Source: a virus (lineage: Duplodnaviria; Heunggongvirae; Uroviricota; Caudoviricetes). From it: DNA of 2,771 nt. The stretch is taken from positions 1-2,771 of IMG/VR virus record IMGVR_UViG_2548876700_000022; one strand, written 5' to 3'. The notes beneath the pieces were generated by a model. The model saw only the letters and a program-made list of their open reading frames with translations. It did no database searches and was not told where the DNA came from. Made by a program: the position numbers and the translations under genes. This document shows positions 1 through 2,771 of this stretch, piece after piece (within the stretch, counting starts at the first letter, position 1; each line of letters begins with the position of its first letter).

Positions 1-267
1 ATGCGCAGAAAAGAGTCAAACGTTAGCAGTTTGCTGGAACTCACCAATTTTGAGGTAAGCTATTCTCTGGTTACCAATGAAGTTTACTTGTCTGCATCCT
101 TCACTGATAACATGGCCTGTATACCAAACTGGCCCTTACAAGAATTTCCGGATCAACTAATATGCATTTCTCGAGCAAAAGCTGTTGCCCTAATCGAAGA
201 GCTCCAGAAGACCATCAACTATATGGATGCAGGAATAGATCGAAGTTCAGGTAGCCTTCTCCAGTAG
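1..267 (+). CDS. hypothetical protein; possibly the 3' portion of a longer ORF entering from upstream of the window
   Basis: Open frame from window position 1 to TAG at 265-267 (88 codons). Same strand as, and 58 bp upstream of, the 326-973 gene, so it may be co-transcribed. Moderately AT-rich. No recognisable motif. The ATG at position 1 may be coincidental, since the frame may continue upstream. Confidence 0.35.
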   Translation: MRRKESNVSSLLELTNFEVSYSLVTNEVYLSASFTDNMACIPNWPLQEFPDQLICISRAKAVALIEELQKTINYMDAGIDRSSGSLLQ

Positions 268-325
268 CTGACGAGTTTTATAATAATTTGATATATATAT
301 CGTTCAATATTAGCGAGTACTTATA

Positions 326-973
326 ATGAGTGAATTTAGTAATCTTTTAAATAGCATACCTGGATGGTTATCCTCCTCCCTCACAGCTCTAGTTGGTACT
401 CTTATTGGCGGATGGTTTACCCTAAAAGGAGTGACCCAACAAGCTAAGCTGTCTAAAGTAGAGACAGAAAGAGAATCCCTTGAATTACAACTTTCAGTAT
501 TAAAAGGAGTTAAGGGAGAAGTTTTCACCCTAATCAATTTATATAATAAAAGGATGAAAACACACATTGATAATATAAAACCGGGACAAATGTTGATTCT
601 CACATTCCCTGTAGGGGATGATAATTTCACATTCTATGAGCAAAATGCGAATGTCATTGCAAAACTAAATGATTCTGCTAGAGACTCAATAATTAACATA
701 TACACATATTCACGCTCATTAATACAATCATTTAAAGGAAACAACAAACTCATTGAGGATTATGAAAAAATCCTTATTGGCATGGCAGACAATAACAAAG
801 ATAAAACCATGTATAAGAGATTACATGATGCAAAAATAAATGTAATGGTAGATTATGCTCAAGGGATAAAAAATATTGATGCAGAGCTAAGAGATGCAGT
901 CAATAAGGGATTCGACATTATCGACCAAGAAGTAAAGTCACTACAAATGAAATTAAACAAATTAGCTTCATAG
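326..973 (+). CDS. hypothetical membrane-anchored protein (single N-terminal TM helix plus helical/coiled-coil region); AT-rich cargo gene and candidate phage-exclusion/defence effector
   Basis: 648-nt ORF with ATG at 326 and TAG at 971-973. Residues about 11-33 (IPGWLSSSLTALVGTLIGGWFTL) form a hydrophobic helix. The rest is hydrophilic and rich in K/E/D/N with heptad-like spacing. The gene is very AT-rich and uses rare ATA/AAA/AAT codons, contrasting with the adjacent invertase. Weak SD-like GAGT about 8 nt upstream. Function is unknown from sequence alone. Confidence 0.7.
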   Translation: MSEFSNLLNSIPGWLSSSLTALVGTLIGGWFTLKGVTQQAKLSKVETERESLELQLSVLKGVKGEVFTLINLYNKRMKTHIDNIKPGQMLILTFPVGDDNFTFYEQNANVIAKLNDSARDSIINIYTYSRSLIQSFKGNNKLIEDYEKILIGMADNNKDKTMYKRLHDAKINVMVDYAQGIKNIDAELRDAVNKGFDIIDQEVKSLQMKLNKLAS

Positions 974-1022
974 AATGCTCCACTCCCTGTTCAATATTTT
1001 TACAAGCTTATCAGCCAACCGC

Positions 1023-1047
1023 AGCACGTTCTTGCATACGACGTGCT
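1023..1047. terminator. putative bidirectional intrinsic terminator hairpin between convergent genes
   Basis: AGCACGT (1023-1029) and ACGTGCT (1041-1047) are exact reverse complements, forming a 7-bp stem with an 11-nt loop. It is followed on the + strand by a T-containing tract (GGTTTCATTTAT). It sits in the 80-bp gap between the stop of the 326-973 gene and the stop of the invertase gene. Confidence 0.35.
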
Positions 1048-1053
1048 ACGGTT

Positions 1054-1608
1054 TCATTTATCTCCGACCGGAAACTTCTTATACAGTGTCGATATACCAA
1101 CATCATAGATGATCGCCACCTTCTGGCGAGGAACGCCTGATGCAATTAATCGTCCGGCCTGCTCCCATTGTTCTGGTGTAAGTTTGGGGCGACGTCCACC
1201 AATTCGTCCCTGTGCGCGAGCTGCTTCCAGTCCAGCTTTTGTTCGTTCAACAATCAGTTCACGCTCCATTTCAGCCAGGGCACCCATCACATGAAAGAAA
1301 AAGCGCCCCATTGGGGTACTGGTATCAATTGAATCCGTCAGACTACGAAAGTTGATGCCTCGTTCGCGCAACTCCTCCACCAGCACGACAAGATGCCGCA
1401 TACTGCGCCCCAGTCGGTCCAGTTTCCAGACCACCAGCGTGTCACCTGCCGATAATGTCCTGAGCAGCTTTTTCAGTCCTGGTCTGTCGGACTTTGTACC
1501 GCTTATCTTGTCTTCAAAAATCAGCTCACATCCTGCACAGTTCAGCGCATTACGTTGTAGATCGGTATTCTGGTCATTTGTTGATACACGTACATAGCCA
1601 ATAAGCAT
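1054..1608 (-). CDS. pin: serine recombinase, Gin/Pin/Cin/Hin-family DNA invertase
   Basis: Translation MLIGYVRVSTNDQNTDLQRNAL...DTLVVWKLDRLGRS...MGRFFFHVMGALAEMERELIVERT...GRIGGRRPKLT...IYDVGISTLYKKF has the hallmark small serine recombinase catalytic domain (Ser9 in YVRVST, codon at 1582-1584) and a C-terminal HTH. At 184 aa it matches the family size. I place the start at the ATG at 1606-1608 (MLIGY), preceded by a GGGGA SD-like sequence, rather than the ORF-track ATG at 1642-1644. The 12-codon extension MASFLLLPGEFN has no SD and is absent from family members as I recall them. The pin symbol is from memory of e14 Pin and is not verified. Confidence 0.93.
   Translation of the reverse strand: MLIGYVRVSTNDQNTDLQRNALNCAGCELIFEDKISGTKSDRPGLKKLLRTLSAGDTLVVWKLDRLGRSMRHLVVLVEELRERGINFRSLTDSIDTSTPMGRFFFHVMGALAEMERELIVERTKAGLEAARAQGRIGGRRPKLTPEQWEQAGRLIASGVPRQKVAIIYDVGISTLYKKFPVGDK
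1515..1590. promoter_or_regulatory. putative Fis-dependent recombinational enhancer embedded in the 5' coding region of the invertase gene
   Basis: In the Hin, Gin and Cin systems the Fis-bound enhancer lies within the first roughly 100 bp of the invertase coding sequence. The corresponding region here encodes VSTNDQNTDLQRNALNCAGCEL. Exact Fis sites are not determinable by eye, so the bounds are approximate. Confidence 0.35.
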
Positions 1609-1634
1609 GTTAAATTCCCCTGGTAAAAGCAGGA

Positions 1635-2033
1635 ATGATGCCATTTGCTTGTTATTTCTTCATTTTCATAAACGTTGGTTTGGGAGAAGCGGCGAAAAGG
1701 GATGTGGGCACAGGAGATAATCAGATACCGGATATGGGAGCATTCGCTTCTGGTTCGGGATGGTTCAGGCTACCAGGTGGATATATTGTTCAGTTTGGCA
1801 CTTTTGCAGGAAACACGACCCGCTTTATCAGTGGACACTTCCCTATACCATTCCCTAATCAGCCGATGGTTTCAGTCAGTGTTATGTCTGATGCCGTTCA
1901 GTCAGACCCGTCGATTCCTGCCCCGCAGGTTTTGTCTGTAAATTTTGAACATATCAGTAATTCAGCGTGGCGTGTGGCAACCAGTGATATCTCACAGCAA
2001 TACAGATTCAGTTATATTTCGATAGGACGGTAG
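1635..2033 (+). CDS. side tail fibre protein, variable C-terminal receptor-binding segment (Stf/S-variable part); gene segment without its own start
   Basis: Open frame ending at TAG 2031-2033, 2 bp before the tfa start codon, which is the typical coupled Stf-Tfa arrangement. The functional coding part most likely begins at the crossover site (about 1663-1677) and is fused to a constant N-terminal part only after inversion. The ATG at 1635 from the ORF track falls in the invertase promoter region and is probably not a real start. The sequence is Gly/Ser/Thr-rich (GAFASGSGWFRLPGGYIVQFGTFAGNTTRF), consistent with fibre-tip domains. Confidence 0.6.
   Translation: MMPFACYFFIFINVGLGEAAKRDVGTGDNQIPDMGAFASGSGWFRLPGGYIVQFGTFAGNTTRFISGHFPIPFPNQPMVSVSVMSDAVQSDPSIPAPQVLSVNFEHISNSAWRVATSDISQQYRFSYISIGR
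1663..1688. other. site-specific recombination crossover site (gix/pix/cix-like), left boundary of the invertible tail-fibre segment
   Basis: TTTTCATAAACG-TT-GGTTTGGGAGAA is a 12-2-12 imperfect inverted repeat, with 8 of 12 positions palindromic around a central TT. It contains the AAAC..GGTTT core typical of Gin-family crossover sites. It lies about 55 bp from the invertase start codon and inside the tail-fibre reading frame, where it encodes FINVGLGE, as is typical for Mu G, P1 C and e14 P segments. Confidence 0.65.
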
Positions 2034-2035
2034 AA

Positions 2036-2476
2036 ATGCAGAAATATATTTTCAGTGCCGATAAAAATGCGTTTTTCCCTGTGGAGCTTAAAATCGCTTA
2101 TCAGGAATCCGGCGAATGGCCCGATGATGGAATCGAAATTGACGACACTGTTGCTGCCGAATTTATGAAGGAAGCACCAGAAGGAAAATACAGAGGTGTC
2201 ATCGACGGAATGCCTGCATGGATTGATATTCCACCGCCAACTCATGAGGAACAAATTGCCGCAGCCGAACTGAAAAAGCAGCAATTGATTAATCAGGTCA
2301 ACGAATACATAAACAGTAAGCAATGGCCTGGTAAAGCGGCGATTGGTCGCCTGAAAGGTGAGGAACTGGTGCAATATAATTTGTGGCTGGATTATCTGGA
2401 CGCACTGGAGCTGATCGATACTTCCGGTGCGCCAGATATTGAATGGCCTACGCCTCCGGCAGTTCAGGCCAGATGA
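2036..2476 (+). CDS. tail fibre assembly protein (Tfa/U family chaperone)
   Basis: 146-aa ORF with an AGGA SD-like sequence 8 nt upstream of the ATG at 2036. It follows the fibre segment immediately. The C-terminus LWLDYLDALELIDTSGAPDIEWPTPP matches the conserved C-terminal motif of Tfa-type chaperones and resembles the C-terminus of the convergent ORF at 2448-2771. Confidence 0.85.
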   Translation: MQKYIFSADKNAFFPVELKIAYQESGEWPDDGIEIDDTVAAEFMKEAPEGKYRGVIDGMPAWIDIPPPTHEEQIAAAELKKQQLINQVNEYINSKQWPGKAAIGRLKGEELVQYNLWLDYLDALELIDTSGAPDIEWPTPPAVQAR

Positions 2477-2771
2477 CGTCCGGCGCTGTGCTGGTATCTG
2501 TTGCCGTCACCGCGTCAATATAATCCAGCACAGCGTTAAGTCGGGTGTTTTCTGGCTGCGTCAGCTTCCGCCCGGCCTGTAATTTCAGTTGAATCAGACT
2601 GATGGAAGCCATTGCAGCATCAATCAGCGACTGGCGCTTTACTTCTGCCGCGTCTAGTGCGGCGCTATGCTGTGCCTCGGTATCCGTCACCCATTTCTCA
2701 CCATCCCATTTATCGTATGGCGTTAATGGGGCGATAGTGGTTGTATTTTCAGGGTAATCACCCGGAACTGT
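2448..2771 (-). CDS. alternative tail fibre assembly protein (Tfa'/U' family), partial; 5' end lies beyond the window
   Basis: The - strand frame is open from the window edge (2771) to the stop at 2448-2450. The translation ...YDKWDGEKWVTDTEAQHSAALDAAEVKRQSLIDAAMASISLIQLKLQAGRKLTQPENTRLNAVLDYIDAVTATDTSTAPDVIWPELPEA has the typical Tfa N-terminal DGEKWV motif and the shared C-terminal LDYIDA...TS.APD..WP motif. The ORF-track start at 2690 is a GTG and is internal; the true start is upstream of the window. Confidence 0.8.
   Translation of the reverse strand, partial: TVPGDYPENTTTIAPLTPYDKWDGEKWVTDTEAQHSAALDAAEVKRQSLIDAAMASISLIQLKLQAGRKLTQPENTRLNAVLDYIDAVTATDTSTAPDVIWPELPEA

Follow-up and report, generated by a model that had tools for sequence, protein, structure and literature searches.

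DNA invertases of the Hin/Gin/Cin/Pin class act through an established mechanism of Fis-aided synapsis, cutting, 180-degree rotation and religation. In the G segment of phage Mu (Sc-Sv-U-U'-S'v-gin), the invertase gene lies outside the invertible segment, at the end opposite the constant part of the tail fibre, and the fibre tips, each paired with a chaperone of its own, form two convergent sets; the C segment of P1, inverted by Cin, has the same layout and logic. In the e14 element of Escherichia coli K-12, which carries the P segment (pinE, stfE', tfaE, tfaP, stfP), both orientations coexist in clonal cultures (PMC4272514; PMC12529663). The Pin-type tail-fibre switch described here is an already known, ordinary system that has been characterized in e14, Mu and P1.

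We analysed a stretch of 2,771 nt (the window), which comprises the last 2,771 nt of draft contig AIAD01000297.1 (assembly GCA_000446095.2) and is 100% identical to positions 7966-10736 of locus L003. Positions 1054-2771 very probably represent the invertase-proximal part (∼1.1 kb) of an invertible tail-fibre segment, roughly 1.8-1.9 kb as a whole, in a temperate myovirus-type prophage beside E. coli yfhH. The original prediction had placed an invertase, a crossover site, a variable fibre segment and two convergent tail-fibre assembly (tfa) genes in this interval, and all of these were recovered there. Its comparison with the architecture of the e14 P segment is likewise borne out by a proximal crossover site identical to that of e14, by a Pin protein sharing 176 of 184 residues (95.7%) with PinE of K-12 e14, and by a truncated minus-strand tfa product that is 94% identical to residues 96-200 of TfaE.

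The invertase gene pin (1054-1608, minus strand) is intact and encodes a 184-aa serine DNA invertase of the Hin/Gin/Cin/Pin class. It has the domain organization of a small serine recombinase, comprising an N-terminal resolvase domain with the nucleophilic serine (Pfam Resolvase, residues 3-135, E=1.3e-51) and a C-terminal helix-turn-helix (HTH_7, residues 138-180, E=3.9e-13), and the catalytic Ser9 lies within the motif YVRVSTNDQ (MLIGYVRVSTNDQ). In addition to its identity with PinE, Pin is ∼77% identical to Mu Gin, aligns to the Gin structure 3UJ3 over residues 1-181 (E=1e-95) and is assigned to PHROG 125 ("DNA invertase"). Residues specific to Fis/enhancer-activated invertases are K47, K/R48, K/R51, Q151, R154 and L155 in Hin (PMC3798978). 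Using a Pin-to-Hin numbering offset of -1, fixed by alignment to Hin (1HCR) and Gin, the corresponding residues of Pin are K46, K47, R50, Q150, R153 and L154. A protein identical to Pin is listed in 3416 blocks of a public assembly collection. A 196-aa ORF reaching position 1644 was considered as an alternative form of pin and rejected as an upstream extension only, the ATG at 1608 being the start used in relatives and in PinE.

Upstream of pin lies a 26-bp crossover site of the pix type (1663-1688, minus strand; TTCTCCCAAACCAACGTTTATGAAAA on that strand), which comprises an outer half-site (1663-1674), a central dinucleotide (AA/TT, 1675-1676) and an inner half-site (1677-1688). Compared directly with K-12 e14 DNA, it matches the pinE-proximal site at 26 of 26 positions; it matches Mu gix at 17 of 26. 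It fits the imperfect palindrome with an AAACC/GGTTT core that characterizes the sites of this class. No second match occurs in the window, and none of 200 shuffled sequences gave one. The site lies 67 bp from the pin start, colinear with gix-gin of Mu, in which the site is also ∼67 bp upstream of the invertase start. A multi-inversion (Min-like) system was rejected, as no extra crossover site with three or fewer mismatches is present in the window or in L003, and each related locus has exactly two.

The spacer between site and gene (1609-1662) is the presumed pin promoter and leader region, based on alignment with e14 and Mu. A single substitution just before the start codon separates it from e14, and it is colinear with the Mu gix-gin spacer in a gap-free alignment. 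A consensus promoter scan found nothing in the pin-site spacer and nine promoter-like matches overall, against 6.0 ± 2.8 expected. On the plus strand, the same spacer supplies an ATG (1635) and a short leader (MMPFACYFFIFINV) for the pin-proximal ORF; the final codons of this leader fall in the outer half of the crossover site.

A candidate Fis-binding recombinational enhancer was identified in the 5' end of pin (1524-1587) by a motif scan and by gap-free alignment with pinE and Mu gin. It contains two G-N13-C motifs (1573-1587 and 1524-1538; a degenerate motif with many weak matches in the scan) whose centres are 49 bp apart. This region is conserved in gin, and its proximal motif lies ∼96 bp from the middle of the crossover site; in the Hin system, the spacing from the site to the proximal Fis site is ∼100 bp (PMC3798978). 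Because Fis motifs are degenerate the enhancer remains a candidate. The residues listed above suggest that the switch in this strain is probably Fis dependent.

Reading away from pin on the plus strand, ORF 1635-2033 encodes 132 aa comprising the leader, with its own ATG, and a Gp53-like tip. The tip (1677-2033; Pfam Gp53-like_C, E=5e-9) represents an alternative C-terminal, receptor-binding segment of a tail fibre, and the reading frame runs uninterrupted through the crossover site inside the fibre ORF (codons ...AAC GTT GGT TTG GGA GAA..., junction ...ENL/GLGE...). It is paired with tfa (2036-2476, plus strand), encoding a 146-aa tail-fibre assembly chaperone (Pfam Caudo_TAP, E=1.4e-33; PHROG 188) that is TfaP-like, with 55% identity to TfaP by blastp. 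Converging on it from the right are the C-terminal 107 codons plus stop of a TfaE-like assembly chaperone (2448-2771, minus strand; Caudo_TAP, E=2.4e-26), the frame of which is open to the window end and which in relatives has a full length of 197-201 aa. A chaperone gene thus follows each tip, and the two convergent tfa genes overlap tail-to-tail by 29 bp at their 3' ends. An Rfam scan found no RNA family. For annotation purposes, the ORF beside pin is an exchangeable fibre C-terminus and not a free-standing gene.

Following the mechanism of this invertase class, we predict that Pin dimers would occupy the 26-bp site (1663-1688) together with an inverted partner within the tail-fibre gene, and that, aided by Fis at an enhancer in the 5' part of pin, these dimers would assemble into a synaptic tetramer. 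Cuts at the central dinucleotide, 180-degree rotation and religation would then leave the segment flipped. The crossover falls in frame inside the fibre ORF, so that each orientation would equip the constant N-terminal part of the fibre with a different one of the two receptor-binding tips, with the matching Tfa chaperone downstream, and inversion would probably change the host range of the phage.

Neither the second site nor the constant fibre part is present on this draft contig, which ends together with the window: it stops 1083 bp to the right of the crossover site, inside the segment, and cuts the TfaE-like gene. A contig end in this position might also be expected if the switch were locked in this strain, the distal site or constant fibre part having been lost or the prophage truncated rightward to leave a remnant with an orphan invertase. 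Decay does occur among the relatives: the invertase of L002 is truncated (the gene is annotated at 315 nt only in phage vB_EcoM-611R5), the tfa genes of L015 are separated from its distal site by an IS (transposase) gene, and L016, L017 and L018 each carry three mismatches in one of their sites. Given that some relatives look disabled, any one strain could carry a frozen switch. For the present strain, however, we regard this as improbable: Pin is full length with its catalytic and Fis-contact residues all present, the proximal site is perfect, and the distal site has been kept in all 16 relatives. Repeats are a simpler explanation for the contig break, since tfa/stf-like sequence is multicopy in E. 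coli genomes (median 2 places per genome, up to 10), and draft assemblies tend to break within such invertible segments. The favoured reading is an invertible segment interrupted by the end of an assembly, in which an inverted TTCTCCCAAACCAAGGTTTTCGAGAG-type partner site probably lies to the right of window position 1688 and the switch is probably still active.

The original prediction hinged on an inverted second copy of the crossover site to the right. Such a copy is found at every one of the 16 related loci, each of which has exactly two sites in inverted orientation, spaced 1.6-1.9 kb apart in 15 and 3.2 kb apart in L015. At those loci for which gene calls were examined, a tail-fibre gene following the baseplate genes contains the distal site. 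One relative (L013), which aligns colinearly with window 1054-2771 at 98.0%, contains the complete switch, its inverted second site being 1885 bp away in a 266-aa fibre gene after baseplate genes. Four others (L001, L002, L006 and L007) have this prophage at the yfhH locus too and share the layout of the window. The constant fibre part is present at the end of the tail/baseplate operon in these four and L005 (same locus), and in L011-L014 and L016-L020. In the window, the Gp53-like tip and TfaP-like chaperone adjoin pin and are uncoupled from the constant fibre part; expression is expected from the set with the TfaE-like chaperone, which lies to the right and is oriented towards pin. The predicted arrangement, in which a constant fibre part on the right drives the expressed minus-strand set, holds in the relatives that share the orientation of the window (L013, L001, L002, L006 and L007).

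The segment inverts between isolates. E. coli O55:H7 DEC5B (L005) also carries the prophage at yfhH; its sequence matches window 1-1689 in the plus orientation and window 1670-2729 in the inverted one, placing the breakpoint of this natural inversion within 1670-1689, over the crossover site. When L005 was inverted in silico between the site centres, a single colinear alignment with window 1-2726 was obtained at 97.99%. In the 231-aa fibre of L005, a constant N-terminus of 113 aa continues in frame into the tip found in the window, with 116 of 118 aa identical when counted from GLGE. Among complete E. coli genomes, junctions of the window type are spanned in 119 and flipped junctions in at least 13, and of 10 loci found with an identical Pin, 6 have the orientation of the window and 4 are flipped. 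By analogy with the published e14 data, the population of the present strain may itself be mixed for orientation. A comparison of O55:H7 strains CB9615 and DEC5B as a simple flip was rejected because their cassettes partly differ, and the clean flipped pair is therefore the window and DEC5B.

The set next to pin may be less than fully silent, as its fibre ORF begins with an ATG of its own and occupies the position that StfE2 has in e14. This raises an alternative in which ORF 1635-2033 yields a free protein able to block the receptors of other phages in the manner of StfE2, so that inversion toggles defence besides, or instead of, virion host range. StfE2 has been reported to block T2 adsorption (PMC12529663), and the ORF shares with StfE2 rebuilt from K-12 (125 aa, 32% identity, E=3e-11) the leader MPFACYFFIFINVGLGE and a leader-plus-Gp53-like architecture. 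The reported activity came from plasmid production of StfE2 (PMC12529663), however, and in the window the promoter scan found no promoter-like site before ORF 1635-2033, while AGGA is placed just 0-3 nt before the ATGs. Moreover, the tip domain is only 32% identical to that of StfE2, and any receptor specificity would therefore differ. We consider this alternative unlikely, and virion host-range switching is the simpler function because the prophage looks complete in relatives.

Two uncharacterized low-GC ORFs (1-267, 88 aa, and 326-973, 215 aa) are located just beyond pin, for which searches of PADLOC, NCBIfam and Pfam returned nothing. The slot beyond pin is a place of variable, often defence-related, prophage cargo: it carries mcrA in e14 and GIY-YIG and Dcm/EcoRII genes in Mu-like relatives, so that the two ORFs could also be defence genes. 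That they are undescribed defence cargo, and that the 132-aa pin-proximal ORF is made alone as a StfE2-like superinfection-exclusion factor of new specificity, is a combination we think unlikely. Exchange of tail-fibre tips on the virion remains the preferred function of the segment. Its meaning beyond correct annotation is modest, adding one more case of very widespread Pin-type tail-fibre switching.

Among described systems, the e14 P segment has both the gene order and the in-frame junction (...ALENLGLGE...) in common with the window, and relatives of the window carry an identical copy of the e14 distal site. The e14 StfP2 and StfE2 fusions were rebuilt from the K-12 sequence, the frame across the crossover being handled as for the L005 fibre. 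The two elements differ in their setting, e14 being a lambdoid remnant at icd whereas the element studied here lies at yfhH and is a prophage of the myovirus type, having genes for baseplate J, DUF2612 and spike proteins. They also differ in the second cassette, whose Gp53-like tip is 32% identical to the StfP tip and whose chaperone is 55% identical to TfaP, and in what lies beyond pin, with two uncharacterized low-GC ORFs in the window in place of mcrA. The orientation of the window is opposite to that of the K-12 e14 reference, the TfaE-like set being distal in the window. The Mu G segment has the same layout as the present locus, including the position of the invertase gene and the convergent tip and chaperone sets, but is larger (∼3 kb compared with ∼1.8-1.9 kb), and fibres of the kind found here are much shorter (∼230-280 aa). 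The Hin/hix flagellar switch of Salmonella uses the same recombinase class and site type, and Pin retains the residues associated with Fis/enhancer activation in Hin (PMC3798978). Hin, however, inverts a promoter together with its own gene, whereas the segment described here carries alternative coding ends and its invertase gene lies outside. In the PinQ/StfE2 system of recombinase-activated phage inhibition (Kirigo et al. 2025, PMC12529663), StfE2 resembles the pin-proximal ORF in sequence architecture, having the same leader followed by a Gp53-like C-terminal domain, although the tip is only 32% identical.

The region from 1054 to 2771 of the window carries one half of a tail-fibre inversion switch of the textbook Pin type, as the original prediction had proposed. 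All five of the elements it listed (an invertase, a crossover site, a fibre segment and two convergent tail-fibre assembly genes, tfa) are present in its open reading frames (ORFs) and intergenic DNA. The invertase gene, pin (1054-1608, - strand), encodes a serine recombinase of 184 aa in which a Resolvase (E=1.3e-51) and an HTH_7 (E=3.9e-13) domain are recognised; the protein is identical to PinE of the Escherichia coli K-12 element e14 at 176/184 residues and aligns over residues 1-181 with the sequence of the Mu Gin crystal structure (E=1e-95). A 196-aa version of the protein in the ORF list was rejected as an upstream extension. The catalytic Ser9 is present, as are K46, K47 and R50 (Hin equivalents 47, 48 and 51) and Q150, R153 and L154 (Hin equivalents 151, 154 and 155), and all six of the latter residues are those identified as specific to Fis/enhancer-activated invertases (PMC3798978).

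The crossover site (1663-1688, - strand) reads TTCTCCCAAACCAACGTTTATGAAAA, identical at 26/26 positions to the site beside pinE in K-12 (4606-4631 of the e14 locus, L008) and matching Mu gix at 17/26. A match to the crossover site occurred in 0/200 shuffled sequences, and no other site within 3 mismatches was found in the window or in the 10.7 kb of L003, the contig portion that ends with the window. The spacer between the site and the start of pin differs from that of e14 by a single substitution immediately ahead of the start codon, and can be aligned gap-free with the Mu gix-gin spacer. Two candidate Fis motifs of the form G-N13-C (1573-1587 and 1524-1538) fall within the stretch conserved with gin, the nearer of them ~96 bp from the centre of the crossover site; in Hin, the proximal Fis site is ~100 bp from hixL (PMC3798978). 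Because such motifs are degenerate, we regard a recombinational enhancer in the 5' end of pin as a candidate only.

The fibre-tip ORF (1635-2033, + strand) keeps its frame across the site (...F I N V G L G E A A K R D...), with a Gp53-like_C domain at its end. It is followed by tfa (2036-2476, + strand), whose 146-aa Caudo_TAP product is TfaP-like (55% identical to TfaP), and the 3' end of this gene overlaps by 29 bp that of a second, convergent Caudo_TAP gene for a TfaE-like chaperone (2448-2771, - strand; 94% identical to TfaE) that is open to the window end. Near the junction of the convergent genes is an imperfect 23-nt inverted repeat (2484-2535, 78% complementary), which arises at least partly because the two strands each encode the conserved motif at the Tfa C-terminus (LDYLDA/LDYIDA), and a terminator-like hairpin (2480-2494) lies just upstream of the repeat.

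The pin-proximal ORF begins at an ATG of its own and shares the leader MPFACYFFIFINVGLGE with e14 StfE; these features and the Gp53-like domain make it the positional and architectural equivalent of e14 StfE2 (32% identity). StfE2 produced from a plasmid is reported to block adsorption of phage T2 (PMC12529663, 2025), and a similar role here, either as a rival or as an addition to host-range switching, has a low probability. A promoter scan of the window found no promoter-like site for the ORF.

Whether the segment is an inversion switch was examined in relatives, as the partner site would lie beyond the contig end. We compared 16 related loci, comprising the prophage at yfhH, e14, and prophages of Mu-like type whose Pin protein is identical. 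Each of the 16 contains two and only two copies of the site, inverted relative to one another, the distal one reading TTCTCCCAAACCAAGGTTTTCGAGAG or a near variant, spaced 1.6-1.9 kb apart in 15 loci and 3.2 kb in L015. In those loci whose gene calls were inspected, it is within the - strand fibre gene following the baseplate genes that the distal site falls. L013 (CP099192.1) is colinear with window 1054-2771 at 98.0%, and its distal site is 1885 bp from the proximal site, within a 266-aa fibre gene. E. coli O55:H7 DEC5B (L005) carries the segment naturally flipped at the same yfhH locus: window 1-1689 aligns on the + strand (97.9%) and 1670-2729, at the segment's distant end, on the other strand (98.0%), the overlap of the two alignments falling exactly in the site core. 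Inverting this locus in silico between the central dinucleotides of both sites makes it align with window 1-2726 in one colinear piece (97.99%). The Gp53-like tip of the window is joined in frame in DEC5B to a 113-aa constant N-terminus (...ALENLGLGE...), forming a 231-aa fibre identical to the window segment at 116/118 residues from GLGE onward. Of the complete E. coli genomes, 119 span the junction found in the window (pin, site, window tip) and at least 13 span the flipped junction (constant part, site, window tip), and among 10 loci with identical Pin the TfaE-like gene is distal, as in the window, in 6 and beside pin in 4. The paired sites and natural flip of the relatives, together with the e14-identical site and near-identical invertase, support the predicted inversion-switch architecture, which is that of the e14 P segment.

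In the Hin, Gin, Cin and Pin systems, the invertase occupies two 26-bp sites in inverted orientation, an enhancer within the 5' end of its own gene activates the synaptic tetramer when Fis is bound there, and cleavage at the central dinucleotides followed by rotation of one subunit pair inverts the segment. By analogy, we predict that the window's segment inverts through this established mechanism. The TfaE-like chaperone gene of the window is distal and reads towards pin, and the Gp53-like tip and TfaP-like chaperone gene adjoin pin, an orientation opposite to that of e14 in the K-12 reference. Placed in this way, the + strand set would have no link to the constant part, and the set expressed from that part would be the one on the - strand, a point on which the original prediction agrees with every relative in the window's orientation. 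Clonal cultures hold e14 in both orientations (PMC4272514), with ~30% inverted in wild type (PMC12529663).

An exact match to the 146-aa Tfa protein led to contig AIAD01000297.1 (GCA_000446095.2; 175,351 nt), whose final 2771 nt (L003 7966-10736) equal the window at 100% identity and on which purL, mltF, tadA, yfhB and yfhH lie to its left. This position and these flanking genes place the window at one end of a prophage inserted beside yfhH in an E. coli chromosome. Its right edge (2771, L003 10736) is the contig end, inside the TfaE-like gene and 1.08 kb past the crossover site. The break was likely caused by multi-copy tfa/stf sequence, which is found at a median of 2 and a maximum of 10 places per E. 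coli genome; since the contig continues uninterrupted across the crossover site, heterogeneity of orientation is less likely to be responsible. At the same yfhH locus in complete genomes, a tail-fibre gene, DUF2612, baseplate J and spike genes follow rightwards, and vB_EcoM-611R5 (L002, ON470588.1), a related element that was submitted as the genome of a phage, also has terminase, head, sheath-like, lysis and repressor genes.

Between yfhH and pin are two ORFs with a GC content of 31-41%, compared with ~50% in the flanks. The first (1-267, + strand, 88 aa) matches PHROG 17793 alone, of unknown function, and the second (326-973, + strand, 215 aa) has an N-terminal hydrophobic stretch and no match in Pfam, PHROGs, NCBIfam or PADLOC. 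The same slot is occupied by mcrA in e14 and by GIY-YIG nuclease, Dcm methylase and EcoRII genes in Mu-like relatives, making both ORFs candidates for prophage defence cargo.

Individual switch copies decay, as some relatives show. In vB_EcoM-611R5 the invertase CDS (L002 3983-4297) is annotated at just 315 nt (104 aa), similarity to pin starts only at window 1342 and another ORF replaces the C-terminal part; its switch would need an invertase in trans. The prophage borders of this record are over-called, since one of its ends includes tadA, yfhB and yfhH, which are host genes. The L015 locus (2683-5946) is disrupted by an IS: a transposase gene (DDE_Tnp_1) separates its distal site from the tfa genes and lengthens the segment to 3.2 kb. 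L016, L017 and L018 have one site each with 3 mismatches; the switches of L015 to L018 may be locked or decaying. The invertase and cassette are also exchanged as a module between unrelated myovirus backbones: within a P2-like tail gene cluster (Ogr, gpD, gpU, tape measure, tube, sheath), a metagenome contig (L004 6820-8847) carries a Pin homologue, the same proximal site and a Tfa with 100% identity to the 146-aa protein of the window, and the identical Pin protein is also found in Mu-like prophages.

The recombination site of e14 is identical in sequence to that of the window and its invertase near-identical; the window's switch resides in a different prophage backbone and has one different tip/chaperone cassette.
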